The notes beneath the pieces were generated by a model. The model made no database searches. It was not told the DNA's origin and worked only from the letters and a program-made list of their open reading frames with translations. This document shows positions 4,907 to 52,435 of a DNA stretch of 52,435 nt, one piece after another; position 1 is the first letter of the stretch, and each line of letters opens with the position of its first letter. The stretch lies in the IMG/VR virus record IMGVR_UViG_3300049846_000543, positions 1 through 52,435 of that record. The stretch is one strand, 5' to 3'. Source of the DNA: a virus. Lineage: Duplodnaviria > Caudoviricetes. The position numbers were made by a program, and so were the translations under genes.

Positions 4907-4907
4907 G

Positions 4908-6515: not shown

Positions 6516-6551
6516 TGATGGAAAATAATTAAAAAGCGTGACTGGTGAAAA

Positions 6552-7359: not shown

Positions 7360-7370
7360 GGATTTACCTC

Positions 7371-7399
7371 TTGACAAACTGACTGAGATATGATAGGAT
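7371..7399 (+). promoter_or_regulatory. SigA-type promoter of the recombination/replication operon
   Basis: TTGACA-17bp-TAGGAT, extended -10 TGn. Confidence 0.8.
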
Positions 7400-7425
7400 C
7401 CCTGCCTCACTTCTAGTAAATTGGA

Positions 7426-22212: not shown

Positions 22213-22986
22213 CTAGAGCGAATAGTGAATATAACTATTGATGTCTTTACGATAGTCGTATGGTAAATACTTCATTGGATACGAACCCATCGAAAGAACA
22301 TCACCATCTCCTACATACAGGGCCACGTGTGTAGGAGAACCTGTTGGAAACCCGGCTTTGTGACCGGATGCAAAACCGTAGAAAATCATATCTCCAGGTT
22401 CCAAGTCACGGAAGTTTACACGTACTCCATGACTAATGAGAGTACCAGTGTATCCTAATCCGTCATAATTTCTTCCGTTGGGATCTTTCGCACCACCAGC
22501 ATAATGACAGTTGGTAACGAAAGCACTACAATCCCAACGTGTAGGAATCTGTTGAGGTTTACATAGCTGGAATGGTCTATATTGATCGTATGCTATTTTA
22601 CTACGATTCCCATACCAGTAGAAAGCAGCTTTAATTACTTTGTCTCGCACTGTGAGTGCGGGATGATCTTTGCAGTAATTAGCTGCTAACCATATAGCGT
22701 AATCATCGAATGCCCACTCATCAGTAGTGGGCTTTTTGCGCTGCTCTAAAGCCTCATGGGTCGCTTTATCAATCTCCCCTGTTGTGGGGAGTTTCATAAT
22801 TAACTGTGCACCTTTAATAGCAGCTACAAAACGATCACCATAGAAGGAACTAAAGCCTCTTATAGGTTGATCATATATAGAAGGAAAAGCACGACTTACT
22901 GCACGTTTGTGTGCAATGATGTCTTGCCCTCTCATTCCCTTCTTGAGAGTGCCTCTACAAAATTGTACGTTAGGTGCTTTACTCAT
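22213..22986 (-). CDS. endolysin: peptidoglycan-binding domain plus NlpC/P60 peptidase
   Basis: LKKGMRGQDI..Q..L..TGEID; DCSAFV, GYTGTL, PGD, HVALYVG. Confidence 0.92.
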   Translation of the reverse strand: MSKAPNVQFCRGTLKKGMRGQDIIAHKRAVSRAFPSIYDQPIRGFSSFYGDRFVAAIKGAQLIMKLPTTGEIDKATHEALEQRKKPTTDEWAFDDYAIWLAANYCKDHPALTVRDKVIKAAFYWYGNRSKIAYDQYRPFQLCKPQQIPTRWDCSAFVTNCHYAGGAKDPNGRNYDGLGYTGTLISHGVRVNFRDLEPGDMIFYGFASGHKAGFPTGSPTHVALYVGDGDVLSMGSYPMKYLPYDYRKDINSYIHYSL

Positions 22987-23599: not shown

Positions 23600-23819
23600 T
23601 AGTGGTGCCCTCCACAACTTCTCTGGCAATCTTGACTGAACGTTCAGCAAGATGTGTTCCTCCCATTGCTAGACTTTTCCATTCATCTCTGTCTCTTACA
23701 ACCTCCTTGTAGTGCCAACCAAATACCCACCATCTACGAAAACCTCCAATAAGAGCAAAGATCAGTAATCCTGTGATTCCTCCTGCTCTTATTAGCTCGA
23801 GAATCTCTTGTGGATTCAT
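23589..23819 (-). CDS. 1-TM membrane protein (holin-like)
   Basis: GGITGLLIFALIGG..WWVFGW...RDEWK. Confidence 0.7.
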   Translation of the reverse strand: MNPQEILELIRAGGITGLLIFALIGGFRRWWVFGWHYKEVVRDRDEWKSLAMGGTHLAERSVKIAREVVEGTTNGS

Positions 23820-28108: not shown

Positions 28109-28417
28109 TTACGTCTCTACAAGTTGGACGTCAATAGGACCTAGTTTGACTACTTCTGAACCTACAGTAAATCCCACAAACAGACGATAATGTCCTGCTG
28201 GTAATAGTCCACCAGGGCCGCCTGAAGAAGTATCTACAAGAGGATTAATTCTCATTGCTACAGCAGTCGTACTTGCGTTGTTATACACGTAAGAGTTGTC
28301 ATCCTTCTGAAACCAAAATTTTGGAGATGCTCCAGAAAGATCAGTAACAGCACTAGTACGATCTACGATATCAACAGGTACTATCTCCTTAGTACCAACA
28401 GTGAGTTTAACAGCCAT
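28109..28417 (-). CDS. small beta-sandwich adaptor (paralogue of 42712-43014)
   Basis: LTVGTKEIVPVDIVD...DLSGA...GHYRLFVGF...VKLGPIDV. Confidence 0.75.
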   Translation of the reverse strand: MAVKLTVGTKEIVPVDIVDRTSAVTDLSGASPKFWFQKDDNSYVYNNASTTAVAMRINPLVDTSSGGPGGLLPAGHYRLFVGFTVGSEVVKLGPIDVQLVET

Positions 28418-28420
28418 ACG

Positions 28421-28822
28421 TTATAACCTACCTCTCACTACATACTTAAATCTTTGAGTAACAGCTAATGACCATTTACCTGCTTCTGTATGGAACCACT
28501 TACGAGAACATTCCAATTCATCCCAAGCACTAGCTCCGAACCTTTCTAGGAAAACTACAACTGCATTAGAACTCGTAGCTTTTAATATTCGTATAGGTGA
28601 TCTAAGCAGACTTGTAGAATTCGTAGCAGTAGCTTTAAGTGTCCTTATTGGTGAAGACACTTTCTTAGGAATTGTAGTTGAAATGGCTGTTAGAATTCTT
28701 ATAGGCATTGCAACTTTAGAAGGTACTGCTGTAGCTACTGCTGTAAGTACCTTATTAGGCATACTAACGTAAGAAGCTGTACCTGTGCCGGTACAGCTTA
28801 ATGTAGCGTTTTGAGTAGCCAT
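28421..28822 (-). CDS. short 18-aa repeat virion protein (5 units; paralogue of 43017-45803)
   Basis: TLKATATNSTSLLRSPIR-type repeats. Confidence 0.75.
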   Translation of the reverse strand: MATQNATLSCTGTGTASYVSMPNKVLTAVATAVPSKVAMPIRILTAISTTIPKKVSSPIRTLKATATNSTSLLRSPIRILKATSSNAVVVFLERFGASAWDELECSRKWFHTEAGKWSLAVTQRFKYVVRGRL

Positions 28823-29295
28823 TAGATTACGACATAAGAGTTATCTGACACTTTACGCCAATAGCCTTCTCTACATTCAAAGGTTAAATCAAATTGTTGG
28901 ACTGTAGGAGAACCACTAGCTGTAAGTGCTCCTAGATTTTGTTCAAGAACACACAAAGCGTAATACTGAGTCGCGTCACCATCTACGGTAAGAACGAATT
29001 TAACATGATCGAACTCAGTGTTACTTTGTGGTGGTACTACCTTCTGAAGCAAAGCCTTTCTTTTAGTCCAGAAGGATGAAGTAGTATCTGCTAGAATTTC
29101 ACCCTTTAGATTTATTGGCATATACTCAACATCTTGATATGTCTTCCATCTACCAGGACCTTGACTTTTTCTAGCAGTCATACCATTAGTAACATATTCC
29201 CAATCAAAGTGTTGGATTGGATAATTAAGATCATCAAGTTCTAGTGAGCTCGAGAAATTATCGTGAACTCCGTAGATATAAAGGCTAGTAATCAT
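28822..29295 (-). CDS. distal tail (Dit-like) protein
   Basis: immediately after TMP; FDLTFECREGYW C-terminal motif. Confidence 0.7.
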   Translation of the reverse strand: MITSLYIYGVHDNFSSSLELDDLNYPIQHFDWEYVTNGMTARKSQGPGRWKTYQDVEYMPINLKGEILADTTSSFWTKRKALLQKVVPPQSNTEFDHVKFVLTVDGDATQYYALCVLEQNLGALTASGSPTVQQFDLTFECREGYWRKVSDNSYVVI

Positions 29296-32200: not shown

Positions 32201-32747
32201 CTGCTGTTGTTTTAGCTGCCAGAGTATTTAAGAAACCTTGCTCAGTAGCGGCGGTTGCCAGTCCAGCATTTAATCTGGCAACCGCCTCACCTTCATTCAT
32301 ACGAAGTCTAGTCATTTGTTGCTGGGTAGACAGACCTCTTAATGCTATTTGAGCATTCTTCTGATTCAGACCTATTATTTGTCCATTTAATAATCTAGCA
32401 TAAGCGTTCCCATTACGGAAACTGATGTTTTGAATCTGATTTAGATCTAGACCTATTCTCTTTAATTTAGTAGCGTGAGATAACTCTGTCGCTTTCAAGC
32501 TATTCATTCTAGATTGATAAGACAGAGCCTTCTGACCAGTAGTTAATGTGTGATCTTGTAGCTGAGCTGCTAATTTAGCTTGCTTGTTGAAATTCGCTTG
32601 CTGAGCATTAGCAATTCTTCCTACTTCTCTCTGTAGCTGAGCAGCACGATTTACTCCCCCGAGATCGGAAGATAATCTTCGCAACCTTGTAGTCGCGCGA
32701 TCCTGCACGCGCAACATAAGATTCAGCTCATAACCTCGGAATGCCAT
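29292..32747 (-). CDS. tail tape measure protein
   Basis: 1151 aa, helical and Ala-rich, TP901-like core, hydrophobic segments, after the chaperones. Confidence 0.93.
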   Translation of the reverse strand: MAFRGYELNLMLRVQDRATTRLRRLSSDLGGVNRAAQLQREVGRIANAQQANFNKQAKLAAQLQDHTLTTGQKALSYQSRMNSLKATELSHATKLKRIGLDLNQIQNISFRNGNAYARLLNGQIIGLNQKNAQIALRGLSTQQQMTRLRMNEGEAVARLNAGLATAATEQGFLNTLAAKTTAEYEKEAAMQQRMIRNRSLIHGGSVALMFGGLGLGLSAGLSSTFANFNREVIKTSTQLRGVNEPMSKTIQISRILGKSILDLTRQFPSTAAENAQAAFEIASGIDMAGNSQARYAKTSALLKTANKVAVAGFTDLKTATDAMIVTLNNFDPRLKNVDKVINTLFATVRFGRGDFATFSQLFGPVAAAGKAAGQNLTEVGGALAFLTTRLPQPQAAAGLQRLLQVMGDKRFVAGFKDLFKVGITHKELISGKEVEKLDDLSTIITKIVTRAKELKSGGIELQNLIQTITKRGEFVLTGKDTTGVQGTIQARRALTNLITGYQQYLNIIKEVNLDTNEFNSSFQAGMQSPGVRWQIAVNQFKAFAIILGEYALPQMVRFIEWINKLAHRFEDLSPRTRRLIGIFMVWGSAITVAVGIIAMLVGAIGTLISWISRLAGPLEGTVGLLGRLAIVAKRLSVIGAISIIIKTAIQGDPKAKDFLAGALSGAIAGGTIGGPWGALAGGIIVPVAMKVSSDFKDDSFEKKIQEIIARQRAIKYAIPVGIEAVERNRDNVHNIMQDNEKAKNSIANKWKELASELSGIDVFNTLSQQAAQMVSNIQVTLAKAEATGNTALVNKLTRQSIIDDWQLIYRLEKQADSPGKAKALIQLYNDITQKNDSLASSANSAASSQGKLADERIRAQLEAKRNQMDLIARAADNLANKFKELEQVNKAAFGIFTGPISQGPIAQLYNNINSMLQGFGIKPIAIPITLQLQDMKVQLRNFTQFRRDLNILRRRGAPRELIDELRNKGVEALPLLEGLRKAGPGAFKEYVDLWEKSQKKIQQSTKKDMDDTLALWKSYGNDIAWQIVQGLASDKAQAVLRKGYKNYIVATFGKELAASLQKEVQDAVANWQRTQQNNSNTTNPVKPPPRPPKPPTRSTIGVGAGVGVGAGAGAVVHNHGDNITIHADSADTARAIKKAMNEHSFNRRNRR

Positions 32748-33697: not shown

Positions 33698-34684
33698 TTA
33701 CGAAATACTAATTGCTGACTTAACTTCGATTTGGTATCCGTCTCCACCAACTTGAGCAAGACCGTGACCTACGAAATTAGCCATTACGATCTGATCTAGT
33801 GATTCGTTGTTGACTTCATAAGTATCGAAGGCCATTCGGTTAGCTTGTAGTTTAACACCGTCTGTTGCGCTAGCGAATGAAACACCTCCTACTGTAGATT
33901 CAAGCTTGATTGCTTGAGTTGCACTAGCTACCATGTTGTCATAATCAACGCGATCTACGAAGTCAAGCTCACTACGTACTTCAAATTCTGTCTTTCCGAA
34001 TTTAACGTAGTTTGCAGAACGCTGAGACTTGATTCGATTTTGTGCTTCTGGATTGTGATTCACATTGAATGTGAATCCATTGAAACTAGTAATTGCAGAG
34101 AATGTAGGTGTAACACCACTTGCGCCATTGTAGACATTGTGAGTATCTGCACCAAGAATGTCTGCTGCAATCCAGGATGGAGTTGGTAGAGACTGTACTG
34201 CTTCCGCAAGACCTAGAATGCTGAGAGTACACTTAAGTACAGCATTGTCGATTGTGAAAGCGTACTGACCAACTGTGCATCCTGTATAACCGAATACAAT
34301 ACCATTTCTCACGATTGTGATCGAGAGAGTTCTTTGGACTGCTCCCGATGCTGCTGTAGAAGTTGAACCTGCTGTAGAAGGAACGAACTTGTAAGTATAT
34401 GGACCAGCACCAGTCTTTGTGATTGTATGTCTAGAAGCATACAGGAAATACAGGAAGTTGTTGGTATCAACTTCTAACTCGATGTCGCCTTCTGTATGAT
34501 AGTAACCAGGCTTCACTTCTGCATCAATCACCTGCTGACGCATCTGTTGTGAATAGTACTTTGACTCTGTATACTTAAGACCTTCACGTAGAATGGGTAC
34601 AAATACAGTAGGAGCTACATATGTACCCATTGTGGATTCTGGCGCAATACCAAGATATCCGGTAGCTCCAATCCCAGGCGGCAT
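33698..34684 (-). CDS. major tail tube protein
   Basis: YLGIAPESTMGTYVAPT, GDIELE, YTGC; position. Confidence 0.9.
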   Translation of the reverse strand: MPPGIGATGYLGIAPESTMGTYVAPTVFVPILREGLKYTESKYYSQQMRQQVIDAEVKPGYYHTEGDIELEVDTNNFLYFLYASRHTITKTGAGPYTYKFVPSTAGSTSTAASGAVQRTLSITIVRNGIVFGYTGCTVGQYAFTIDNAVLKCTLSILGLAEAVQSLPTPSWIAADILGADTHNVYNGASGVTPTFSAITSFNGFTFNVNHNPEAQNRIKSQRSANYVKFGKTEFEVRSELDFVDRVDYDNMVASATQAIKLESTVGGVSFASATDGVKLQANRMAFDTYEVNNESLDQIVMANFVGHGLAQVGGDGYQIEVKSAISIS

Positions 34685-39827: not shown

Positions 39828-39964
39828 TACTCATCTTCCTCCTTTGCAATTGGAGGAGTCTCTCGGCGCCATCCATTTATCACATCCTTAGTCTTAGGTT
39901 GATAAATAGGAGTTGGACCTGTACCGGCATCGGATCTTTCGTATGCACGATTTTCTGCACTCAT
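39827..39964 (-). CDS. 45-aa hypothetical protein (not in ORF track)
   Basis: TAATG coupling at both ends between portal and protease. Confidence 0.55.
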   Translation of the reverse strand: MSAENRAYERSDAGTGPTPIYQPKTKDVINGWRRETPPIAKEEDE

Positions 39965-41343
39965 TATACAGCTCCACTACTAGGTGATTTACCAACGTTA
40001 CCAGCACCACCATTATTGCTGGTTGATAATTTTGTAGGTGTTACTTCCGGACGAGCTTCAGTCTTTGCAGGCATATCAGCAATCTGACGTAGATACTGTT
40101 CTGTGCTCATATCTGGAGTAATGCCTGCTGCATCCATTAAGTTCTTTATACCTGAAGACCACATCTGGAAATCTTTTACTTCCCCAATATTACGAACCTT
40201 CATCTGTGGGAATCTGTTTGTGGGGAAGTTGTAGGATACTAATCTAGGAATTGTGTACATATTCATGTATCCACAAATTCCATTAGCAATATTTCTCATT
40301 GCTTTCATAAACATGTCAAAGGCCGTTGCACCAGTAGCACGACCTCCGCCAGATGAGTCAATTCCCATGTTTATGAATTGCACTAGAATGTTTTTCATGA
40401 TTTGATTATCATGATGTAAAGCACTTTCTAGTGCATTTACTAAATTACCTTCAACTTTTGCGAAACCTACAGTAAGACTAGAAGGACGAACGATATATCC
40501 TTTTTCGTTCGTTCGTAAGTTTGCTGCTAGTTCTTCTGCTAGTTTCTTTTCAGCTTTGGTAGCACCAGGCATAACCTCAACTTCTGGTACTCCAATACCG
40601 TGACGTTCTTTTTGAATTGCATCAATAGTGTAGAGTTTATCTTTGTAATACCAAGGACGATAAGCTGGACGAAGAATTGACTCTCCTTCAATATCTCCAT
40701 CACCTTCAAAGGTGAATACTACACATTTATCTATAGGTATCTCAATTTGTTTAACTTTATTATCAGCACCTATAGCATTCTGCTTTAGAGATAAAGGTCC
40801 ACCATTATCATCAAAGTTAAATCCTGTAACAGAACGAGCAGGTCTTTCAGCTAATTTCTTAAGCATTGTATATTGTCGAAGATTAGCTGTGGGAGAAGTA
40901 GTCCTAGGTGACCACTCTCGTAATTCGTAAACTTCCTCTAAGACAGAGAAACCATTTTCTAAGAAACGACAAATAGCTTCAAGTGTCTTGTTCCAAGGAA
41001 GATGTCCACCAAAGAAAATGTTGTCAGAGACGAATTCTCCAACAACTTGATCATTGATATCCTGGCTATAAGCATCTACGTAGAATTCTGCACCAAGTAT
41101 AGATGCTTTGCCAGCGCGTAAAGAGGAGCGTACAGAGACATCCCCTCTAATCATCTTTTTGTAGGTTTGGAGCTCTTGATTCCTATTCGCTAATTCAGGT
41201 ACAGGGTCCTGAATCTTAGATAGCCTAGATGACCCTAATTCGTTATCTGAGCCACTAGGTACAGGAACGGCTCCTTGAGCGGAGTAGCTAGTTCCGGTAA
41301 TTTGCTTACGTGGTGTAGATTGTACTAAACGAGCACTAGCCAT
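39964..41343 (-). CDS. portal protein (Mu gp29/DUF935-like)
   Basis: GFSVLE, GESILRPAY..W..K, ERHGIGVP; follows TerL. Confidence 0.9.
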   Translation of the reverse strand: MASARLVQSTPRKQITGTSYSAQGAVPVPSGSDNELGSSRLSKIQDPVPELANRNQELQTYKKMIRGDVSVRSSLRAGKASILGAEFYVDAYSQDINDQVVGEFVSDNIFFGGHLPWNKTLEAICRFLENGFSVLEEVYELREWSPRTTSPTANLRQYTMLKKLAERPARSVTGFNFDDNGGPLSLKQNAIGADNKVKQIEIPIDKCVVFTFEGDGDIEGESILRPAYRPWYYKDKLYTIDAIQKERHGIGVPEVEVMPGATKAEKKLAEELAANLRTNEKGYIVRPSSLTVGFAKVEGNLVNALESALHHDNQIMKNILVQFINMGIDSSGGGRATGATAFDMFMKAMRNIANGICGYMNMYTIPRLVSYNFPTNRFPQMKVRNIGEVKDFQMWSSGIKNLMDAAGITPDMSTEQYLRQIADMPAKTEARPEVTPTKLSTSNNGGAGNVGKSPSSGAV

Positions 41344-42712
41344 ATGATATCGATTCTTCCGCTTTTATACCACTAGTATACGTGAAAAATGACTCTGCTT
41401 CGCTTCCCTGCATTGTACCACTGTATACGGAATCTAGTCCTATATTCCTCCCTAATACGAAATACTGACTAAAGAAGTAACGGATAGTATCAGGTCCGTG
41501 GTCATCATAATCATGCTGCCCTACTTTTTCGTTATGACCATCTTTTCCTTCCTTACGACGTAGCTGACTCATTTGTCGTATAAGATGCTTACAAGAAGGA
41601 TCTACGAAGAACTTAGGAGGACCTTCAAGAGGTTTAATCCATCTAGTTACAGCTTCTATTCCTTGTGACCAAGGAACACGATCTGCCCATATTTTACCAA
41701 GTAAATATTCTAAAGTTGCAATTTCATCTGCACCTGATGGATCTCCAAACATCATACTCACATGAAAACCTGGAGGATTTTCCCTATTTTTGATAATATT
41801 TGCATGTTGGAAAGTTGGAAGATAAGATACCTGATACTCTCTCCACACATAAACATTATCCATTGGATCTACCATTATATCATAACAACAGAATGGATCA
41901 ATGTAACCAAAGTCAAATGCCCAGAAATTTTTCCAGTCAGGATTATACTCGATTGAACGTACATGAGTTTCTTCTTTAAAGTCTGGATAGATTTGACCTT
42001 CGAACGAAGTGAAAGCTGCTGCATACTCTTGTTCCCAATACTGTTTTGAAACGTTTTGGCGGATACGTACAAGTTCTGGGTCGTCGTACCCACCTGGGTA
42101 CATTGCAGTATTTGTCCAAGTTGGGAATCTCCAAGATTGATAATCTGGAAAGTTAGGATCCATACCAAGATCGAATAATCCCTTGTACCAATTGAATCCT
42201 TGTGGAGTACTCGGGAAAATAGCAGAACCACGTTTGTCAGATAATGAAGGTTCAATAATCTGCTGCCAAGTACGCATACTATGCCTAGCAGCTTCTGACA
42301 TAATTACACCATCAAGAGCTTCACCTACTAGAGTATCAGGCTTTTCTGCTGACACGACTTCTATTGTGCTACCCCAAGAAGTAACGATACGCATCTGCCC
42401 TTGATTAACATTGTAAGTTTTCGTAGTACAACTGCTTAGAAGGCCTAACTTCTTTAAGTCATTCCAGACAACTCTAAATTCTTTTTCTCCAAGACGATAA
42501 GTAGGACCTACAATCCACCACATAGTATCTGGAATAAACAGATTATAGGTAAATTCATGTCCAGCCGCTTGTGATTTTCCGAAGCGTCTACCACAACAAG
42601 GCACTTTGAATCTAACAGTAGAATTATGAATTTCCCACTGTTCTGCACTATGTGGCTTGTAACCAAGCTTATAAAACAGAGTGGTTTTATTTATTAGTGC
42701 TTCACGCTTCAT
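41336..42712 (-). CDS. terL: terminase large subunit
   Basis: CGRRFGKS, VGPTY, LVGEALD..SEAA, STPQGFNW, AFDFG, DHGPD. Confidence 0.95.
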   Translation of the reverse strand: MKREALINKTTLFYKLGYKPHSAEQWEIHNSTVRFKVPCCGRRFGKSQAAGHEFTYNLFIPDTMWWIVGPTYRLGEKEFRVVWNDLKKLGLLSSCTTKTYNVNQGQMRIVTSWGSTIEVVSAEKPDTLVGEALDGVIMSEAARHSMRTWQQIIEPSLSDKRGSAIFPSTPQGFNWYKGLFDLGMDPNFPDYQSWRFPTWTNTAMYPGGYDDPELVRIRQNVSKQYWEQEYAAAFTSFEGQIYPDFKEETHVRSIEYNPDWKNFWAFDFGYIDPFCCYDIMVDPMDNVYVWREYQVSYLPTFQHANIIKNRENPPGFHVSMMFGDPSGADEIATLEYLLGKIWADRVPWSQGIEAVTRWIKPLEGPPKFFVDPSCKHLIRQMSQLRRKEGKDGHNEKVGQHDYDDHGPDTIRYFFSQYFVLGRNIGLDSVYSGTMQGSEAESFFTYTSGIKAEESISYG

Positions 42713-43014
42713 CAGTCATCTACTCTAATTCTAAACGGTCCTAATCTTACTTGTTGTGGAGATGCAACAAAGTGAATATACAGATTGTAATAACCTTCTT
42801 CAAGGTTAGTTGTATCAATTAAAGGTAGAGCGATCATAACATCATTAGCTGCTGAAGCGTTAGTTACAACTGCTGTCTCCGCTGCATCAGCTTTATATAA
42901 ATCGTATCTTAAGTCTGCACCAGTTAAAGTTATTAAAGCATTTAATACATCTGTAACCTTAATTGGTACATTCTCGACAGTACCTTTAGTTAATCTTACT
43001 TCTCCTGTTGCCAT
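42712..43014 (-). CDS. small beta-sandwich adaptor (paralogue of 28109-28417)
   Basis: LTKGTVENVPIKVTD...LTGA...GYYNLYIHF...VRLGPFRI. Confidence 0.75.
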   Translation of the reverse strand: MATGEVRLTKGTVENVPIKVTDVLNALITLTGADLRYDLYKADAAETAVVTNASAANDVMIALPLIDTTNLEEGYYNLYIHFVASPQQVRLGPFRIRVDD

Positions 43015-43016
43015 TG

Positions 43017-45803
43017 TTACTCCTTATGAGAACTAAAGGGATCTAACATTTTAGCTATAAATCTTCTTGTGTGACTCCCTTGATAAGCTGAATAGGATTG
43101 TGCTGTATAGTGTTTCAATACTTCTGCAGTCCATTCAGAGAATGCTATAGCATGTAACTTCGTACGACCAATGAAATTAAAGATATGAGTTGCAATACTA
43201 GCAACAGCATGTCCTGTAGCATTTAGTATTAAACCTGCTGCTGAATTAGTTGTAAGAACTGGATTTATACTTCCAGTAGTAATAATGAATTTACCAACCT
43301 GGCGAACTATACTTAATAGTGGTGTAGCTGTTGTTTGTAAAATCTTATTAACAGATTTTACTAAAGTAACAGTATTAGAACCTATAGCAAGTAGAGTTAC
43401 TGTACCCGGAATCACTGTTGTATTAAGAGAGGTTACATTAGAAGCTATTGCTTTTAGAATTCTAATAGGACTTCTAATTAAAATAGCTACTCCAGTACTA
43501 ACAGCTGAAAGAGTTACAACTTTAACTTTAACTGTAGTTAATGAAGCAATTCCTGTAATAGTTGTTATTAGTACTTTTGAAGGAACTACAATTTTAACAG
43601 CAACTCCTGTAGCAGTAGTAGATAGAATCTTGATAACTGATTTTACTAATGATGCTGTTCCAGTTCCTATAACTGTTAATGTCTTTAATGGAAATCTTAT
43701 TAGAGACGCAGTAGCAGGTCTAGATACTGAAAACACTTTCGAAGGAGAACGAACTAAAGTAGCTATTCCTGAACCTGATACAGTTAGAATTCTCGAGGGT
43801 GATCTAACAAAAGATGCTACAGACGTTCCTACCACATTTAATGTTCTTATTGGACTTCGTATTAATGAAGCTACATTACCTGCTGTGGCTGTAAGAGTCC
43901 TTGTAATTACCTTAAGAGTTGTTAATGTAGCTATTGATGTTGCAGTTGCTATTAGAGTCTTTGCAGGAATTTTTAATAAGTTAGATACTGATACACTAGT
44001 AGCCGAAAGCACTTTTATAGGAGAACGAACGAATGTTACTATTCCAGTACCTATAACTGATAGTATTTTGATAGGACTTCGAATTAAGAATGTTACATTT
44101 GTACCTGTAACTATTAAAGTTCTTATAGGTGACTTTATTAAAGTTACTATAGAGATTGCAACTACACTTAGAACTCTAGAAGGAACTTTAAGTAATTTTG
44201 GTACGGATGTAATAATTATAGAAAATATATTAGTAGGAGAACGTACAAATGATGCGACACTTGTTCCAGTAGTTATTAAAATCTTTATAGGACTTCGAAT
44301 CAGAAATACTGCATTAGTACTAGTAGCCGTTAAAGTTTTAACAATGACTTTTAAAGTAGTTAAAGTTGCTACTGAAGTAGCTGTAGTAGTAAGAATCTTT
44401 AATGGGGATCTTATTAAAGAAGCTGCACCAGTTCCAATAACAGATAAAATTCTAATAGGAGTTTTAATAAGTGTTGCTACTCCTGTACCTATAACGGAAT
44501 AGGTCCTTTGAGGAGTTTTAAGTAATTTTGGTACACTTGTTGCTATAACACTTAATGTTCTAGACGGTAATCTAACTAAAACTGGAATAGTAGTTGATAC
44601 TACTGTTAAAATCTTTTGTGGAGCCCTTGTTAATACAACAGTATTACTCGCTGTTGCAGCTAAAACTTTTATAGGATTTCTTACTAAGAAGGCTATACCT
44701 GTTCCTGTAACACTAAGTATTCTACTAGGAGATCGAATTAGAGATACAGAGTTTGTAGCTACAGCAGTTAAAGTTCTTACAATCACTTTTACAGCAGCTA
44801 AACTAGCTACTCCAGTACCAATAACACTCAAAATTTTATTTGGAGTTACTAATTTATTAGCAATTCCTGTAGCAGTAACAGATAAAACTTTTAGAACGTC
44901 TCTCTTTAATGTAGCTATTCCAGTACCTGTTGTACTCAATACTTTTATAGGAGATCGAATTAGAGTAGCAATAGAACTACCATGAGTAGCCGTCAGAATT
45001 CGTTGAGGCGATCTAATGAAAGATACCACTCCAACAACTACTACACTTAACACTCTAATAGGAGATCTAATTAAAGAAGCTACTCCAGTTCCTGTTACAC
45101 TTAAGATTCTTTGTGGATTCCTTATTAAGGTAGAAACACCAGTACCGGAGACTGAGAGTAATCTTTGTGGAGCTCTAATTAAGAATACTGAGTTAGTTGC
45201 TATAGCAGTAAGAGTTCTATTTATAACCTTACTTGTTATTAGCGTAGCTACTCCAGTACCGACTAAAGTAGTCATAGTACGAGAAAGACTTATTATCTTT
45301 GTAGCTGTTCCAGTACCCGTTGCACTAAGAGTCCTTATTGGATTAGTAATCTTAGTAGCTAATCCAGTTCCTGTACTTAATAGAACTTTTCCGGGTACCC
45401 TTATGAAGGACACCACACCACTACCAGTTGCTAATAGCACCTTTATAGGAGAACGGATTAATGTAGCAACAGAGGAACCGCTCGATGCAGATAGCACTCT
45501 TTGAGGAGTGCGAATAAGAGCAGCAATCTCTGTATTTGGAGTAACAGTAAGTATTCTAGAAGGTAATCTCAGAAAACTAGCTACAGCTGCACTAGGAGAA
45601 CTCCTAGTAAGAATTCTAGAAGGAGATCTAATTAGAAATAGAACAGCAGTACCAATTGAAAATAAAATTTTGATTGGACTACGAATTAAAGAAGCACTAC
45701 CTGATGCTACAGCAGATAATGTTTGTTGAACTAAATTACCTGTAGGAGTAGCTTGAGGTATTTTAGGAGTTGGATTCCTAAATATAGGTGCTTGAAAAGG
45801 CAT
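43017..45803 (-). CDS. 928-aa 18-aa tandem-repeat protein (putative fibre ruler/core)
   Basis: about 46 repeats, consensus ILSVTGTGVASLIRSPIK. Confidence 0.85.
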   Translation of the reverse strand: MPFQAPIFRNPTPKIPQATPTGNLVQQTLSAVASGSASLIRSPIKILFSIGTAVLFLIRSPSRILTRSSPSAAVASFLRLPSRILTVTPNTEIAALIRTPQRVLSASSGSSVATLIRSPIKVLLATGSGVVSFIRVPGKVLLSTGTGLATKITNPIRTLSATGTGTATKIISLSRTMTTLVGTGVATLITSKVINRTLTAIATNSVFLIRAPQRLLSVSGTGVSTLIRNPQRILSVTGTGVASLIRSPIRVLSVVVVGVVSFIRSPQRILTATHGSSIATLIRSPIKVLSTTGTGIATLKRDVLKVLSVTATGIANKLVTPNKILSVIGTGVASLAAVKVIVRTLTAVATNSVSLIRSPSRILSVTGTGIAFLVRNPIKVLAATASNTVVLTRAPQKILTVVSTTIPVLVRLPSRTLSVIATSVPKLLKTPQRTYSVIGTGVATLIKTPIRILSVIGTGAASLIRSPLKILTTTATSVATLTTLKVIVKTLTATSTNAVFLIRSPIKILITTGTSVASFVRSPTNIFSIIITSVPKLLKVPSRVLSVVAISIVTLIKSPIRTLIVTGTNVTFLIRSPIKILSVIGTGIVTFVRSPIKVLSATSVSVSNLLKIPAKTLIATATSIATLTTLKVITRTLTATAGNVASLIRSPIRTLNVVGTSVASFVRSPSRILTVSGSGIATLVRSPSKVFSVSRPATASLIRFPLKTLTVIGTGTASLVKSVIKILSTTATGVAVKIVVPSKVLITTITGIASLTTVKVKVVTLSAVSTGVAILIRSPIRILKAIASNVTSLNTTVIPGTVTLLAIGSNTVTLVKSVNKILQTTATPLLSIVRQVGKFIITTGSINPVLTTNSAAGLILNATGHAVASIATHIFNFIGRTKLHAIAFSEWTAEVLKHYTAQSYSAYQGSHTRRFIAKMLDPFSSHKE

Positions 45804-46549
45804 TAATTAAGAGAAGATAAAATGTATGACTCACAAGTTAGTGTATTTGAAGCACTAGAAGTACCCCAAGTAATGTTTATAGTAATACCACAACCAGCTG
45901 TACCTTGACCAGTTGTATCAATAGTAGCTGCTGTATTACCCATATAAGATATTTGAGCGTATTGGGAGTTAGTGACAGGAATGCCCATTACAACATACCC
46001 TTGACCTCTACCAGTACCTTGTGTAGCTCCCGGAGGAGCAGTTCTAACATCAAACCTAAATTCTCCATAGAAAGGTAAAGCTGAAACACCTGTAATAGTA
46101 GTTATAGTGGGAGAGGCTCCTAAACTTACATTAGTACCAGGAGTAGTAGAAATTCCCCATCTAGGAGTCCATATTATAGTTGGTGTACCAGTATTACCAT
46201 AAGTTCCACCAAATGTTACTTTATAAATTTTTCCTGCTTTAGCATCATTAGCTGCAATTGAACAAAATTGATTAATTAATGCTTGTGTAGAACCTACAAT
46301 ATTAGACTCTGAAATTGTAGTGTTAATAGCTGCAAAAGCAGCAGTATTTACATCATTAGTATCTAATGATGTAAAACCTTGTCTAGCCATCATATATAAA
46401 TTGGGATACTTCTTACCTAAAGCTAAATTTTTTCTTACAACTTCTGGAGCTTTGTTTTCAATAAGCCATCTACGATGAAAAGGACCTAAAGGCATTCCTG
46501 AAGCTATTTCACGTTCAATAACTTCTGAAACAGACATCAAACCCTGCAT
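45803..46549 (-). CDS. putative virion beta-sandwich protein
   Basis: Gly/Thr-rich; AGGAG RBS; TAATG-coupled to the repeat gene. Confidence 0.65.
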   Translation of the reverse strand: MQGLMSVSEVIEREIASGMPLGPFHRRWLIENKAPEVVRKNLALGKKYPNLYMMARQGFTSLDTNDVNTAAFAAINTTISESNIVGSTQALINQFCSIAANDAKAGKIYKVTFGGTYGNTGTPTIIWTPRWGISTTPGTNVSLGASPTITTITGVSALPFYGEFRFDVRTAPPGATQGTGRGQGYVVMGIPVTNSQYAQISYMGNTAATIDTTGQGTAGCGITINITWGTSSASNTLTCESYILSSLN

Positions 46550-47789: not shown

Positions 47790-48263
47790 TTAAATCACCT
47801 TAACATTGATTGTTGTAGCATTCCACTTATATTTAGCAGAGATGCCAGGACAATTGCTATTAGCGAAATATAAAGTGTACTTAGATAGTACTGCAAAAGT
47901 TTGTACTTGCCCAGCACCAGCGTAATACTTTCCTCGTAGAACTGGAGGAGAATCTCCAGAACTAGTTACTGTCTTAGTCCACCATCGATAACCTTCTGCA
48001 TAATTCTTGATAAGAAGACCTACAGTAGATTTACGAACAGTAACATCAGCAACTTGAGAACAGTTCTTACCATCTACTCCACCTAAACGAACTCGAGCTC
48101 CAAACGGTGGATCAGGTTCATTTGTAGGATAAGTAGGAGGAATTTGTAAAGTTAAAGAAGGCTCCTGTGTCGCAGTAGAAGTATCTAAACTATTAGCTAC
48201 TAACGCACCTGTTGTTACTGCAAGTGCAGATAATCCCACTGCTGCAATTCCTTTTCGTCCCAT
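47790..48263 (-). CDS. secreted or membrane-anchored protein
   Basis: signal-like N-terminus MGRKGIAAVGLSALAVTTGALVA. Confidence 0.65.
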   Translation of the reverse strand: MGRKGIAAVGLSALAVTTGALVANSLDTSTATQEPSLTLQIPPTYPTNEPDPPFGARVRLGGVDGKNCSQVADVTVRKSTVGLLIKNYAEGYRWWTKTVTSSGDSPPVLRGKYYAGAGQVQTFAVLSKYTLYFANSNCPGISAKYKWNATTINVKVI

Positions 48264-48469
48264 TTAATATATCCTGTTTGATGTAATCTAGTTGCTAGGT
48301 GGGCTCTATTTTTTGCTCTTAATTTCCAAAGACACTTTTTCAAATGAGTCTTAGTAGTTTCTAAAGATACATTTAAAGTATCTGCTATTTCTTGATTAGT
48401 GTATCCTTGTGCTGCGAGAATCGCTGTTCTGAGTTGTATTGAAGATAAAGGTCGTAAATTCTCTCGCAT
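48215..48469 (-). CDS. stand-alone LuxR/GerE-type HTH regulator
   Basis: LAAQGYTNQEIADTLNVSLETTKTHLKK..KL.AKNR. Confidence 0.88.
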   Translation of the reverse strand: MRENLRPLSSIQLRTAILAAQGYTNQEIADTLNVSLETTKTHLKKCLWKLRAKNRAHLATRLHQTGYIKWDEKELQQWDYLHLQ

Positions 48470-48996
48470 AATTGGCTAATTCTCGATTCTGTAACATTGA
48501 TTTGTTTTGCAATCTCTGTCCCCGTATAGCCCTCTATGCGCATTAAAGCTACATAACGTTGTCTATCTGTCAAGGTATCTAAGAAATTTTCAAAATCTAT
48601 GTTAAAATCTATATTAGGAAGATTATCAGCTTTTAGTTCAAGTCCTGAACGTTCATCTGTATCTTCCATTAAAAGATCTAGAGAGTAAACAGTAAAACCT
48701 AGAAACTTAAAATTTTCCTCGTTATACTGTGATCTTTTGATACCTTTGTATTGTTGTACTAATTTTCGTCTTACATCTATCGATGCGCCATAAGCTCTTT
48801 GGTATAAATAACTTAATAAGGATGAACCTTTATCAGGATCATGTAAAGTGTAAGCTCTGTATAATTTTTCCTGTATTTCAGCTATAACATCATCTAACAT
48901 AAAATCGAACTGCATACAGTTCTTTAAAGCAAAATGTTTAGATAGACGCTTTATAGTTTCTATGTCTTCTTGCTTTATTTCCGATAGTGGCGGCAT
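48385..48996 (-). CDS. sigma-70 family RNA polymerase sigma factor (FliA/WhiG-like)
   Basis: region 2 HDPDKGSSLLSYLYQRAYGASIDVRR; region 4 LTDRQRYV...TEIAKQINVTESRISQL. Confidence 0.85.
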   Translation of the reverse strand: MPPLSEIKQEDIETIKRLSKHFALKNCMQFDFMLDDVIAEIQEKLYRAYTLHDPDKGSSLLSYLYQRAYGASIDVRRKLVQQYKGIKRSQYNEENFKFLGFTVYSLDLLMEDTDERSGLELKADNLPNIDFNIDFENFLDTLTDRQRYVALMRIEGYTGTEIAKQINVTESRISQLCERIYDLYLQYNSEQRFSQHKDTLIKK

Positions 48997-49004
48997 TTTA
49001 AGTC

Positions 49005-49039
49005 ATTATTGTTGGGGTGGGCCTTGCCCCAACAATAAT
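49005..49039 (-). terminator. terminator upstream of the sigma gene
   Basis: 13-bp IR ATTATTGTTGGGG/CCCCAACAATAAT. Confidence 0.7.
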
Positions 49040-49695
49040 TAATTCCAGACTACGAAACTGGAAGTTGCAGAGTTAGTTCCATCTGTAGCTGTTAGAATCC
49101 ATTTACCTGCTGCTTCTGCAAAGAACTTAGCATCTGTTGCACCTGTAGCTGCTGCACCACCTGAGAATGTTCCACCACCAAATGATAACTGAGTAGATGC
49201 TTCAGTTGATGCTAGTGAGTTACCACCAGTACCACCTGTTTTTGCTACTAAGAATAGAGTTGTAGCAGTAATTGTGCTAGCACGTACTGTTGGGTGTAAT
49301 GTTGTAGCAGCAGCATACTGAGTGCCAGATACGCCTGTTTGATTAATTGCATCTTTAAGGTTCTGTAGTGAAGCTGCTGCTGAAGCTCCGATAAGAACTT
49401 CGTTAGCGGCAGGAGTTAATGTGGTCTTGAATGTATATGTAACTGCACCAATTGTAACAGTATCGTTGTTTGCTACGTTAGTACCTGTTGAAGTAAGAGT
49501 TGCTACTGCAAAGTCTACTTCGTCAGTTGTACTGAAGCTGCCTGAACCATCTGTAGAAACTATTTCACGGAATGTTGCAAGCCCAGGCTTAGTGTATTCT
49601 AGAGTAACAGTTGTAGACGGAAGAAAGTCATCTCCGTCTACAATTACACCATCACCTTTATTGATATTTGTGGGAGATATTGAAAGAGTAGCCAT
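49039..49695 (-). CDS. putative virion protein (Ig-like frame with inserted domain)
   Basis: Thr/Ala/Gly-rich; NDTVTIGAVTYTF...NLKDAIN. Confidence 0.7.
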   Translation of the reverse strand: MATLSISPTNINKGDGVIVDGDDFLPSTTVTLEYTKPGLATFREIVSTDGSGSFSTTDEVDFAVATLTSTGTNVANNDTVTIGAVTYTFKTTLTPAANEVLIGASAAASLQNLKDAINQTGVSGTQYAAATTLHPTVRASTITATTLFLVAKTGGTGGNSLASTEASTQLSFGGGTFSGGAAATGATDAKFFAEAAGKWILTATDGTNSATSSFVVWN

Positions 49696-50097
49696 TTAGG
49701 TAATCTGTACCTTCCATGTTAGCTGTAGTGAATCACCGTTCAGTAGGTTAATTACGTTTAAAGTTGCAGACGTAATCATGTTACCTGCTGAGGAAGCATC
49801 AAAAAGCCCCGATTCGTCTACGGCCCTTGTTGCTGTAATTGAGATTGTACCAACTGACTGGTACGTATCGCCGGTCTGAGTAGTAGTAACGGTTGACTCA
49901 GTACCCGATGCGCGAGTTTCGACTTCAGTGGTTAATGCTGTATCTGATGCTGCTGCCGTTCGTGCTGCACCTGTTGCACCTGTACCAATTCCAATAAACT
50001 TAGGTGAAGTGGTATAAGTACCAGGAGTTGTTCTTGCACGATCAGCGAAAAGTGCCTTGCCTTTGTTCGTTAGAACAGTGGCTACACCGAATGCCAT
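49696..50097 (-). CDS. stand-alone tail-collar-fibre-like domain protein (putative fibre subunit)
   Basis: LTNKGKAL...IGIGTG...DTALTTE...ESGLFDA..GNM...GDSLQLTW. Confidence 0.75.
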   Translation of the reverse strand: MAFGVATVLTNKGKALFADRARTTPGTYTTSPKFIGIGTGATGAARTAAASDTALTTEVETRASGTESTVTTTQTGDTYQSVGTISITATRAVDESGLFDASSAGNMITSATLNVINLLNGDSLQLTWKVQIT

Positions 50098-50975: not shown

Positions 50976-51256
50976 AATCCTATTAATCCTATGGTTAGAT
51001 TGTAGTTGGATGGTAGCGACTAGTGTACGTGCAGGGTCGCGCGTAGTGACACTAATAATACAGCATGGTTACGTATACTAGTGTTTCAAAAATTCCATTC
51101 GTTATAGTTTGATTTTTTGATTTTAAGAATTTAGAGATTCTGATTTTGAAAATTTTACTTCGGAGTTACTTGGGGAGTAAAGCGCACAGTGGTCGTCGCG
51201 CGCGTTATAGTTCCTCTTGTGAGTTGAAGTTAGTCACCTAGATCGGAGGGATCGGA

Positions 51257-51526
51257 ATGGACGATCGTATGGTCATTCGCGCGGATGCCCGCGCAATGGG
51301 AGCAGTCACCGCAGTATCTCCGCGCGCATCGGCACGGTGGATCGGGAGTGGTACGAAGTCTGGTCCGTGTACGTCCCGATTCGGCGACGGTCCCGCAATT
51401 CCCTTCGTCCGCACGCGCGACACATCCGAACGAGTCACGCGTAAAATTCTCTCCGCACGTGAGGCACATCGGCACATGCTCCGCGAGTCGGCGCTCGGCA
51501 AGCTCGGAGAGGCAGAACAGTACTGA
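51257..51526 (+). CDS. GC-rich hypothetical protein
   Basis: GGAGG RBS plus ATG, followed by a hairpin; may be non-coding. Confidence 0.4.
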   Translation: MDDRMVIRADARAMGAVTAVSPRASARWIGSGTKSGPCTSRFGDGPAIPFVRTRDTSERVTRKILSAREAHRHMLRESALGKLGEAEQY

Positions 51527-51543
51527 GAGGCGCAAGCCTCTCA
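51524..51543 (+). terminator. GCAA-capped hairpin
   Basis: TGAGAGGC-GCAA-GCCTCTCA. Confidence 0.55.
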
Positions 51544-51613
51544 CACTCTCCCCCCACCACTTTCACGCTGCGCATAGTTAGCTATTGCGCGCGATGATAC
51601 CCGAATTTTTCAC

Positions 51614-51642
51614 TTGACAGTGTGAGCGTAGGATGCTACAAT
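51614..51642 (+). promoter_or_regulatory. strong early SigA-type promoter
   Basis: TTGACA-17bp-TACAAT, extended -10 TGn, T-tract upstream. Confidence 0.85.
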
Positions 51643-51670
51643 CACACTATCGAAAGAAAGGAAAAGAAAA

Positions 51671-51937
51671 GTGGCATACACAATCGGAATGAGAAATAGG
51701 AAACAGCTAGTCGAGGATGATCGCTGTAAGTGTGGTGAGATCGCGATCGTTTCAAAGACTGTCGACGGTATGCGATATCACTTCTGTGCGAATCATCTCG
51801 GAACACCAGTACAGTCAGAAGAAGACGAAGTGATGAGCGCGGTCATGGAATTCATCAATCGACCGAAGATCACTCCAACAACACAACCGATGCTCGGAGC
51901 ACCTACCGATGACGGTGGAAGGAAACGGTGGATCTGA
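51671..51937 (+). CDS. early hypothetical protein, Zn finger
   Basis: CKCGE...FCANH; AAGGA RBS. Confidence 0.65.
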   Translation: MAYTIGMRNRKQLVEDDRCKCGEIAIVSKTVDGMRYHFCANHLGTPVQSEEDEVMSAVMEFINRPKITPTTQPMLGAPTDDGGRKRWI

Positions 51938-52170
51938 TGGATCAGGAATTCCTCGACTATATGTCAAATAAGATCAGTGAGGGAGATCATGGAGCTTTGA
52001 TCTGTCTCTCAGCACTGAATCTTTACATGGGAGATTACACTCGTAGTCTGATTCACTGTGATTGGGAGAGTTTTCTCCGCACACGCCCCGTCAAAGAGAA
52101 TATCTGGAAAGCGATTCGCGCTGGACAGTATCTCAGAGAAAGGAAACGTGAAGAATGTTCAGATGGTTGA
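51928..52170 (+). CDS. hypothetical protein
   Basis: overlapping coupling. Confidence 0.55.
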   Translation: MDLMDQEFLDYMSNKISEGDHGALICLSALNLYMGDYTRSLIHCDWESFLRTRPVKENIWKAIRAGQYLRERKREECSDG

Positions 52171-52359
52171 CATACAACTTTCCACAGAATCGACGTAAGA
52201 GAGTAAATCGGATTTTGTGGCAAATCCGGCTTTGGTACTAGAGAAGAACCCCACAAAATCATCGAATCCGCGAAATCGGAGGTAATGTCTTCTAGACAAC
52301 TGTACATACTTGCATAGTCAAGTGAGCAGAGTAGCGGGTAGCAAGAGTATGCTATTTTT

Positions 52360-52435
52360 CTAGTAGAAAACTGGAAAATAGTCCAACCTAGCTACTATAG
52401 TATATATTATATATAGATATTTTTATATATAGTAT
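52360..52435. other. AT-rich putative replication origin region
   Basis: near-pure (TA)n tract; ACTGGAAAA at 52370 and at window position 3. Confidence 0.4.

Follow-up and report, generated by a model that had tools for sequence, protein, structure and literature searches.

A basic repeat protein of 46 units

The window, which is the whole 52,435-nt stretch of viral DNA analysed, contains on its minus strand an open reading frame (43017..45803) that encodes the 928-aa repeat protein P0001, a candidate rope of a virion fibre. From the open reading frame and its translation, P0001 consists of a 27-aa Pro-rich N-terminus, an array of 46 units of ~18 aa (residues 28-874; 43182..45722, minus strand; autocorrelation and unit parse), and a 54-aa aromatic and basic C-terminal tail (residues 875-928; 43020..43181, minus strand). 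A similar tail pattern occurs in the homologue P0002 and in the ropes of two close relatives, L006 and L007. In the ORF map, base 45803 belongs both to the start of P0001 and to the upstream gene, and 2 nt lie between the P0001 stop and the gene that follows. The P0001 gene also adjoins a terminase gene.

The number and length of the units matched a preliminary description of this DNA, which had counted about 46 tandem units of about 18 aa. BLOSUM62 autocorrelation of P0001 gave a top peak at lag 18 (1.24; identity 0.318) and a second peak at lag 146 (0.78). For residues 28-874, the value at lag 18 was 1.21, compared to -0.40 +/- 0.07 (maximum -0.20) in 500 composition shuffles, and the value at lag 146 was 0.73, compared to -0.40 +/- 0.08 (maximum -0.14) in composition shuffles, in agreement with the super-repeat of about 146 aa proposed earlier. 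The unit consensus, per position, is [T/I]-L-S-V-x-G-T-G-V-A-S-L-I-R-S-P-I-[R/K]. L2 recurs in 25/28 clean units, L12 in 22/28, R/K14 in 26/28, P16 in 26/28, and R/K18 in 26/28. Parsing placed longer, Pro-less units exactly where they had been described, at units 9 (22 aa; 45216..45281), 17 (21 aa; 44775..44837), 25 (20 aa; 44337..44396), 33 (20 aa; 43899..43958), and 40 (20 aa; 43515..43574), all on the minus strand; units 3 (20 aa), 4 (19 aa), and 42 (21 aa) are further irregular units.

The composition of P0001 is as strongly basic as first reported, with 100 K+R and 6 D+E in the whole protein. The repeats by themselves contain 91 K+R and 2 D+E, for a net charge of about +89. Identity at even lags is about twice that at odd lags, which corresponds to an alternating, beta-type pattern and bears out the alternating hydrophobic residues of the preliminary description. 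Tandem Repeats Finder detected no DNA-level repeat with a score of at least 30, except for a 16-base hexamer run; therefore, the repeats are old and diverged in DNA and are not an assembly artefact. The six super-repeat blocks show 25-51% identity to the first block. Comparison of P0001 with Pfam and PHROGs found no family that names the repeat protein, and neither P0001 nor the super-repeat profile matched anything relevant among PDB sequences. The ESM Atlas contained no model of P0001, and its feature matches were unnamed viral clusters at values of at most 0.90.

A candidate bead protein with a distant likeness to Gp80

A gene for a 133-aa protein, the candidate bead (49696..50097, minus strand), is separated from the rope gene by six genes, one of which encodes a sigma factor. 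The 133-aa protein matched the Gp80 family PF23140 at E 6.5e-4 and 20.5 bits (also 19.3 bits), under the cut-off of 27 bits, and PF23140 matches under this cut-off also occurred in 2/14 control genomes. It matched phrog_5417 at 3.6e-10. Within the bead family, 20/36 members matched PF23140 at E <= 1e-3 (best 2.8e-6), and the bead homologue of phage record MW202615.1 reached 26.9 bits against the cut-off of 27. Alignment of the bead family to a profile of nine Gp80-family sequences by hhalign gave a probability of 83% and E 8.7e-6 over the C-terminal 43 columns only, and similarity of the 133-aa protein to a single gp80 sequence was weak (E 0.002 and 0.016). Together, these matches point to a distant likeness of the 133-aa protein to Gp80, which makes it a candidate bead. 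It is the only Gp80-like gene product in the record.

The bead family comprises 905 homologues; identity is at least 72% among the 120 listed. The 133-aa protein is near neutral (9 K+R versus 10 D+E), and D94-E95 is invariant. Neither the bead nor the bead profile matched anything relevant among PDB sequences. GP4 gp80 is present in PDB 8JOU as 10 chains, and the AF2 monomer model of the bead was poor (pLDDT 38.1), too low for a fold comparison with that structure. Homologues of GP4 gp80 itself were found in 492 phage records, 412 of which are from Mycobacterium phages.

Candidate bead and rope genes are neighbours in related viruses

We examined 29 viral loci that were fetched by the bead alone, 23 of which extend at least 4 kb downstream. 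In 20/23 of these loci, the bead gene is followed downstream by a same-strand ORF that has an 18-aa period and ~5 to 39 units; within the locus set, L016/L017 and L029/L034 look like near-duplicates. Among 1,564 ORFs from all loci, 18-aa periodicity was confined to rope genes and their shadow frames. The periodicity scan found no clear 18-aa-period gene in the other three loci (L008, L009, and L027). The scan replaced a unit HMM built from P0001, which recovered ropes in just 3/29 loci. A search with the P0001 sequence misses the divergent ropes of L012 and L014, so its silence on L008, L009, and L027 is uninformative. In all 21 ropes, the period is exactly 18 aa and each unit is net positive on average, at +0.8 to +2.3; proline is not conserved among them, ranging from 0 to 1.2 per unit.

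In the relatives, the rope super-period is 3, 4, 8, or 11 units. Block duplication fits this spread better than a fixed structural period, and the periodic kinks that the preliminary description had assigned to the 8-unit super-period of P0001 are not supported. The close relatives L006 and L007 encode beads that are 94% and 89% identical to the 133-aa protein and keep the terminase and portal genes (E about 1e-245 and 1e-225). The two ropes are built differently: that of L006 has 796 aa with ~26 units and an N-terminal domain, and that of L007 has 989 aa with at least 39 units and an inserted globular domain.

Homologues of the repeat protein form 219 representative clusters. The layout of this family is one of N-terminal or inserted globular domains, followed by repeats and a C-terminal tail, with a median of 276 aa ahead of the repeats. 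In these proteins the same repeats are fused in the same frame to LamG, esterase, GDPD, and Gp77 domains; among 57 P0001 homologues, LamG occurs in 10/57, esterase in 2, and GDPD in 1. The C-terminal end of the homologue P0026 is a PF23148 domain, that of the GP4 fibre-tail adaptor gp77 (E 8.8e-24). Source contigs of coinciding size link three pairs of rope and bead homologues (P0002/P0162, P0004/P0217, and P0011/P0210). Searches for relatives with P0001, P0005, and P0011 among viral contigs, or with P0005 and P0006 among metagenome contigs, found none. In the phage collection, searching from the rope first gave one match, MW202615.1, in which a bead gene lies 1.4 kb upstream. The public annotation of MW202615.1 took an opposite-strand shadow ORF over the rope.

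A second, shorter cassette follows the distal tail protein gene

The record contains a second, smaller version of the rope cassette. An ordinary tape measure gene (29292-32747; PF10145 at 1.6e-12 and several tape-measure PHROGs) is directly followed by the gene for the distal tail protein, Dit (28822..29295, minus strand; phrog_33 at 1.3e-5), and then by a mini-rope gene (28421..28822, minus strand) that encodes 133 aa, with ~5 units of the P0001-type 18 aa and a C-terminal tail. The mini-rope matched P0001 at E 3.1e-14 and 40% identity, and BLASTP aligned the two in many registers at 34-43% identity. Since Dit directly precedes it, we place the mini cassette at the tail tip.

Each rope is accompanied by a small protein. 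Directly after the P0001 gene lies the gene for a 100-aa beta-sandwich protein (42712..43014, minus strand), a candidate fibre-to-virion adaptor, and two genes after Dit lies that of its 102-aa paralogue (28109..28417, minus strand; 33% identity, E 1e-13). Homologues of the 100-aa protein are also encoded after the ropes of L006 and L007. Its ESM Atlas model aligned with a cluster at a TM of 0.80, and the part of that cluster covered by the alignment is BppU_N; we take this as a lead only. The 100-aa protein and 12 relatives had no Pfam match (0/13 at E <= 1); pairwise and profile comparison of the 100-aa protein with GP4 gp77 and P0026 found no similarity, and its search against PDB sequences found nothing relevant. 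At E <= 1, the record contained no match to PF23148, the Gp77 family. In other loci, 3/19 small ORFs that follow the ropes gave Ig-like Pfam matches, all of them sub-threshold.

Upstream of P0001, a gene whose stop overlaps the rope start in the ORF map encodes a 248-aa protein (45803..46549, minus strand), a possible distal partner that had no Pfam or PHROG match. The gene at this position differs in every relative. At E <= 1e-3, the 29 related loci contained no homologue of the 248-aa protein or of a 218-aa protein encoded after the bead gene.

Structure predictions of the repeats and of a putative bead-rope complex

ESMFold2 prediction of four beads with five units (residues 197-286) gave an ipSAE of 0.48 (runs 0.32, 0.52, and 0.48), compared to 0.01 for the best of three controls. 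The complex runs shared at least 91% of contacts, and partner pLDDT was at least 51. In the calibration, this mark was reached by 116/157 solved complexes and 2/215 mismatched pairs. We grade the score as weak support, because the band at 0.60 or under holds only 18/157 solved complexes and both of the passing mismatches. The prediction used alignments made for this analysis and a multi-copy layout outside the calibration, and it gave no contacts; the score may reflect likeness to solved complexes. The interface that the preliminary description had foreseen between the repeats and the 133-aa protein receives weak support from this score.

A confident self-contained fold, the outcome that the same description had set against its own proposal, did not emerge from the AF2 monomer prediction of one super-repeat. 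The best model had a pLDDT of 59.7 and a pTM of 0.48, with two strands per unit throughout; no residue reached a pLDDT of 90, and the five models ranged from 42.8 to 59.7. A Foldseek search of the PDB with this model gave 0 matches at E <= 0.001 (best E 0.82, TM 0.36). The model itself is regular and strand-rich, as predicted by AF2, and is not of the kind expected of disorder, which leaves room for a self-fold.

Discussion

We consider it probable, though well short of certain, that a siphovirus here builds a chain-like, beads-on-a-rope virion fibre, with P0001 as the rope and the 133-aa protein as the Gp80-like bead. In this model, the 46 basic 18-aa units would serve as beta-strand docking sites, and each unit, or pair of units, would bind by beta-augmentation and complete the beta-sheet of one dimer of the 133-aa protein. 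The stoichiometry would follow, in that the number of units would set the number of beads and hence the length of the fibre. As to polarity, we propose that the C-terminal tail of P0001 is a virion-proximal anchor and that the small beta-sandwich protein from the next gene downstream holds it, at the presumed point of attachment. The second, 5-unit rope and the paralogous adaptor encoded after Dit would probably string the same bead at the tail tip. Both ropes and the bead would then be expected in virions.

The core of the preliminary description, a chain that does not fold alone, whose repeats donate beta-strands to copies of the 133-aa protein and whose repeat count sets the length of a flexible filament, has gained from the fit to a fibre architecture solved by cryo-EM, the bead-rope neighbourhood in 20/23 loci, and the likeness of the bead to Gp80; the complex score adds weak support. 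The ratio of one copy per repeat gained no such support. Its analogy to a second tape measure is not supported. Tape measure proteins are helical, lie inside the tail tube, and leave at infection. P0001 resembles them in that the length of one protein would set the length of a virion part. However, an ordinary tape measure gene is present elsewhere in the record, P0001 had no match to tape-measure families (PF10145 and PHROGs), and a rope would stay in the fibre and would not act as a transient ruler.

We weighed other accounts of the repeats against this bead-and-rope reading. The 18-aa units might fold alone into a long, rigid and self-contained shaft like those of other phage fibres, either a beta-solenoid of one chain or a homotrimer of intertwined chains, with the 133-aa protein as a separate collar or fibre component. 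The two strands per unit throughout the AF2 super-repeat (pLDDT 59.7, pTM 0.48) and the many homologues with the usual fibre layout of a lectin or enzyme domain, repeats, and a short tail speak for such a shaft. We nevertheless regard it as unlikely: the monomer models stayed at 42.8 to 59.7 with no residue at pLDDT 90, Foldseek found no PDB match at E <= 0.001, and the ~91 positive and 2 negative charges would presumably stack into uncompensated ladders in a solenoid. A shaft also leaves unexplained why a Gp80-like gene stands beside the repeat gene in 20/23 loci and why the complex scored 0.48 against 0.01 for controls. Alternatively, the rope might carry a different bead, with the repeats docking, for example, the 248-aa or 218-aa protein instead of or besides the 133-aa protein. 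Translational coupling of the 248-aa gene to the rope would suit this idea, as would the long Pro-less units if they are a second kind of site, and the available text on phage A1002 describes two bead proteins on one rope (PMC13730344). By contrast, the gene upstream of the rope is different in every relative, and homologues of the 248-aa and 218-aa proteins occur in 0/29 loci, compared to all loci for the 133-aa protein, by which the loci were fetched. The 133-aa family is, moreover, very conserved (905 homologues, the 120 listed at least 72% identical). A different bead seems to us quite improbable.

Two further readings would remove the protein partner or the gene itself. As a polycation, P0001 might bind capsid DNA or an acidic polysaccharide of the host through basic turns resembling S/T-P-x-K/R, given that the charges of the repeats sum to about +89, that R-S-P-I-K turns recur in 26/28 clean units, and that a terminase gene lies next door. 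We think this highly improbable, since related ropes do not conserve the proline (0 to 1.2 per unit), homologues bear lectin and esterase domains of surface type, a paralogue lies within the tail-tip module, and the alternating hydrophobic strands would presumably be exposed if a partner were absent. That the frame is no gene at all, and is either an open frame arising from repetitive sequence or the shadow of a true gene on the opposite strand, is barely conceivable. The plus strand does contain shadow ORFs of 405, 162, and 73 aa, and the public annotation of MW202615.1 falls on the opposite strand; however, these opposite frames are interrupted, all neighbours are tightly packed on the minus strand, and 219 representative homologues keep the frame, including fusions to LamG, esterase, GDPD, and Gp77 domains.

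The bead-and-rope reading draws on fibres of known architecture. In the available text of one report (PMC13730344), chain-like fibres are described for three phages, GP4, VP1, and A1002, all of them podophages and with at most 11 bead dimers. The same text gives GP4 five gp80 dimers on a separately encoded rope, and A1002 11 fibre dimers that each dock by beta-sheet augmentation on a rope-like domain of ~300 A, the fibre dock. In A1002, a Pseudomonas phage, as the text has it, the rope belongs to nozzle-rope protein gp39, the fibre dimers consist of gp40 and gp41, the C-terminal part of the rope is anchored to the virion, and a globular Ig-like domain lies along the length of the rope or at its far end (PMC13730344).

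Fiber I of the Ralstonia phage GP4 and the present locus share the arrangement of a Gp80 or Gp80-like gene upstream of a separate, periodic, strand-prone protein, followed by a small gene of ~100 aa. The GP4 gene order is gp80, gp79, gp78, gp77, and gp79 may be the GP4 rope, as suggested by its position and periodicity only. The domain of the adaptor gp77 also recurs in the rope homologue P0026. In contrast, GP4 is a podovirus with five dimers, and the present phage is a siphovirus with 46 units in P0001 and no Gp77-family protein found in its record. Moreover, gp79 is rich in Gly and lacks the basic character of the 18-aa units of P0001, and its period is ~10/20 aa. No similarity between P0001 and gp79 was detected (hhalign E 0.45), and gp79 had no match to PDB chains by sequence. 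The rope-family layout of globular domains, repeats or dock, and C-terminal part is as in A1002. Unlike in A1002, where a domain of the nozzle protein serves as the rope, binds 11 dimers made from two bead proteins, and wraps the tail tube, the rope here is free-standing, has 46 units and one bead gene, and belongs to a siphovirus.

Among siphoviruses, mycobacteriophage CharlieGBrown offers a likeness in its gene pair 32/33, in which a gene that resembles GP4 gp80 (tblastn E 7e-8) sits beside that of a "minor tail protein" with ~8 repeats of 20 aa. It differs in the 20-aa period, in repeats that are non-basic (20 K+R versus 16 D+E), in a rope gene upstream of the bead gene, and in a Gly-rich C-terminal domain after the repeats. 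For the small proteins, a possible parallel comes from lactococcal siphophage baseplates, in which the BppU N-terminal domain (PF10651) anchors peripheral baseplate parts to Dit. The TM of 0.80 for the 100-aa Atlas model and the position of the 102-aa paralogue two genes after Dit are consistent with such a role; in contrast to BppU, the proteins here are stand-alone domains of ~100 aa with no Pfam match. The neck fibre of Anabaena myophage A-1(L) was also considered. The available text on this phage describes a flexible, beaded fibre of ~100 nm that contains gp82, gp81, and gp80 (PMC10966104), with many copies of a small protein that is encoded away from the main structural genes, as here. 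In the same text, however, its trimeric beads connect head to tail and no rope protein is described, and A-1(L) was set aside as a model on that account.

A bolder form of the bead-and-rope reading is possible, although we hold it as doubtful. In this form, the fibre would be the longest of the rope-and-bead kind yet inferred from one free-standing rope, with 46 units carrying 23 to 46 bead dimers over ~60 to 125 nm, if the ~27 A per dimer of A1002 applies, and the 5-unit rope at the tail tip would carry the same bead. A large, unannotated family of ropes would be marked by the basic 18-aa repeat, with repeat number as a heritable and fast-evolving length ruler, and the interspersed 20-aa Pro-less units would offer another type of site, as a hinge or as a dock for some other protein.

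If the bead-and-rope reading is true, the comparison flags a recurrent annotation error, in which an opposite-strand shadow ORF is called in place of the rope, as in MW202615.1. Fibres of this type would then also occur in long-tailed phages, potentially across the 219 repeat-protein clusters and 905 bead homologues, and a simple length rule would hold, by which the bead count can be predicted from the count of 18-aa units. The reading would also explain why the rope changes fast, in unit number and in inserted lectin or esterase domains, whereas the bead is ~90% identical among close relatives. A fast-changing rope combined with a conserved bead is the pattern expected of a host-range module.

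Repeat structure of P0001

In a report on phage A1002 (PMC13730344, PLoS Biology 2026), chain-like fibers are described as gp80-like dimers strung on a rope, with an augmented beta-sheet between each dimer and the rope. We think it fairly likely that P0001, the 928-aa repeat protein encoded at 43017-45803 (- strand), is the rope of such a fiber, whose stoichiometry, polarity, attachment site, and presence in virions we infer. Autocorrelation of P0001 gave a sharp peak at 18 residues (1.21 vs -0.40 ± 0.07 in 500 composition shuffles) and a second at 146 residues (0.73 vs -0.40 ± 0.08, likewise in 500 shuffles). Residues 28-874 were parsed into 46 units with conserved L2, L12, R/K14, P16, and R/K18, and the protein contains 100 K+R and 6 D+E. 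These results confirmed the repeat array, super-period, and basic chain reported in the preliminary description, and the parse placed the longer Pro-less units at the same positions (units 9, 17, 25, 33, and 40). No repeat was visible in the DNA of the gene, implying that the array is old and is kept up at the protein level.

Block duplication explains the super-period, and the blocks of P0001 are 42-51% identical to each other. In the ropes of the window and of loci L001, L007, L011, and L020, the super-period was 56, 74, 146, or 200 residues, a length that in every case equals n x 18 + 20: each block holds 2, 3, 7, or 10 ordinary units and a single long Pro-less unit of 20 aa. The 146-residue super-period is real in P0001 but is no constant of the rope family; the long Pro-less unit is conserved, its spacing is not, and this unit may be a hinge or second docking site.

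Homologs and genome setting

A word-indexed search returned 15 homologs of P0001, and an exhaustive search returned 219. They usually consist of 200-400 aa of globular sequence, about 10 units like those of P0001 (median K+R 24, median D+E 2), and a short aromatic and basic tail. P0001 is atypical in nearly lacking the N-terminal domain and in having the highest unit count. Among 57 homologs scanned for domains, we found LamG-type lectin (10/57), esterase (2/57), and GDPD (1/57) domains, and one homolog (P0026) ends in PF23148, the fiber-tail adaptor gp77 of podophage GP4. The public record of L001 (MW202615.1) leaves out a 998-aa repeat protein (4716-7712, +), in which about 32 units, each 18 aa long, come after an Ig-like domain, and annotates in its place a shadow ORF of 603 aa from the incorrect strand (5774-7585, -). 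The gene for the 998-aa protein immediately precedes that for terminase and has the same orientation as its neighbors.

The window record (52,435 bases; estimated completeness 93%) carries a siphovirus structural module on the - strand, comprising genes for large terminase (41336-42712), portal (39964-41343), S49 protease and major head protein, tail tube (33698-34684), an 1151-aa tape measure (29292-32747), Dit (28822-29295), and further tail-tip proteins; no sheath gene was found in this module. The P0001 ORF is directly upstream of the terminase gene, with a single 100-aa gene in between, and its start shares one base with the preceding 248-aa gene. Long shadow ORFs on the opposite strand (43285-44502, 45016-45504, and 45508-45729; 405, 162, and 73 aa) are also periodic and could be taken for genes by gene callers. 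Between the tail-tip and lysis genes (for a membrane protein of 124 aa and, at 22213-22986, an NlpC/P60 and PG_binding_1 endolysin), a 929-aa distal tail protein (23816-26605, -) with no Pfam or PHROG match is probably the main receptor-binding protein. G+C is 0.46 in the last 2 kb (51000-52435) and 0.35-0.42 elsewhere, and ORFs on both strands overlap at 51230-51581.

Candidate bead gene and its neighborhood

The 133-aa bead candidate (49696-50097, -) weakly matches PF23140, the GP4 fiber protein gp80; its own score is below the Pfam cut-off, and 20 of 36 members of its family match at E <= 1e-3. In a profile-profile comparison, the bead family matched a profile built from nine cultured-phage sequences of the Gp80 family (83% probability, E 8.7e-6), with the match confined to the C-terminal 43 columns. 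The structure model of the bead monomer was too poor for use.

Twenty-nine viral loci, some of them near-duplicates, were fetched with the bead alone as query. In 20 of the 23 loci with at least 4 kb downstream of the bead, that flank contained an ORF on the bead's strand whose period was exactly 18 aa; the exceptions were L008, L009, and L027. The number of units in these ORFs ranges from about 5 to 39, all of the ORFs are basic, and lectin-like domains often precede them. The window and its close relatives L006 and L007 have terminase, portal, and bead in common (bead identity 94% and 89%, respectively), as well as the order bead, rope, protein of about 100 aa, terminase. The ropes of L006 and L007 differ in length, number of units, and inserted domains.

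Within the fiber gene block, between bead and rope, are overlapping genes for a sigma-70-like factor (48385-48996, -; phrog_351, E 7e-14) and a small LuxR/sigma-region-4 HTH protein (48215-48469, -), a pair present in L007 and absent from L006. Directly 3' of the bead gene, a 218-aa protein (49039-49695, -) matched Adhesin_P1_N only at noise level (E 0.0076) and had no homologs among the 29 loci.

The genome contains a second copy of the repeat, a 133-aa protein of about 5 units after Dit (28421-28822, -). It is followed by a 102-aa protein that is a paralog of the 100-aa protein after P0001 (33% identity, E 1e-13). The Atlas model of the latter resembles BppU_N-type baseplate anchor domains (TM 0.80), a lead to a possible anchor. 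No Gp77-family adaptor was found in the window record.

Structure predictions and comparison with known fibers

Complex prediction with 4 beads and 5 units scored 0.48 (runs 0.32, 0.52, and 0.48), and the highest score among three controls was 0.01. At least 91% of contacts agreed among runs, and the partner pLDDT was at least 51; the output listed no individual contacts. Of 157 solved complexes, 116 reached this mark, as did 2 of 215 mismatched pairs. Because only 18 of the 157 solved complexes, plus both passing mismatches, reached it at 0.60 or under, the prediction lends weak support to bead-rope pairing; moreover, similar complexes have already been solved, and resemblance to these may account for the passing score. 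Alternatively, the repeats could fold by themselves. AF2 modeled the rope alone as a regular strand-rich object (pLDDT 59.7) for which no PDB fold match was found, a result that argues neither for nor against self-folding.

The preliminary description likened P0001 to a second tape measure, a candidate ruler whose repeats would donate beta-strands to the 133-aa subunit. In substance, this interpretation, which we find partly supported, is the A1002/GP4 design as given in PMC13730344. We reject P0001 as a tape measure and propose that it works in the manner of the GP4 and A1002 ropes. According to that report, the A1002 rope domain of about 300 A carries 11 dimers and the separately encoded GP4 rope carries five, compared to the 46 units of P0001. 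Pfam confirmed gp80 and gp77 in the GP4 genome, and GP4 gp80 is present as 10 chains in 8JOU. Between the gp80 and gp77 genes, one gene encodes gp79, a rope-like, Gly-rich protein with a period of about 10/20 aa that would be the GP4 rope; it had no PDB chain match and does not resemble P0001. P0001 differs from the GP4 and A1002 ropes in sequence family and charge, and, unlike in those phages, would be a free-standing rope in a siphovirus with a mini paralog at the tail tip.

In our literature searches, we came across no account of this 18-aa repeat family or of ropes of this kind in siphophages. In Mycobacterium phage CharlieGBrown (L044), gene 32 (4789-5949), a "minor tail protein" that contains about eight 20-aa repeats and has a Pro-rich N-terminus like that of P0001, is directly followed by Gp80-like gene 33 (5980-6369). 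This gene pair and the 492 phage records with GP4 gp80 homologs, 412 from Mycobacterium phages, suggest that rope-and-bead cassettes may be common in cultured siphophages.
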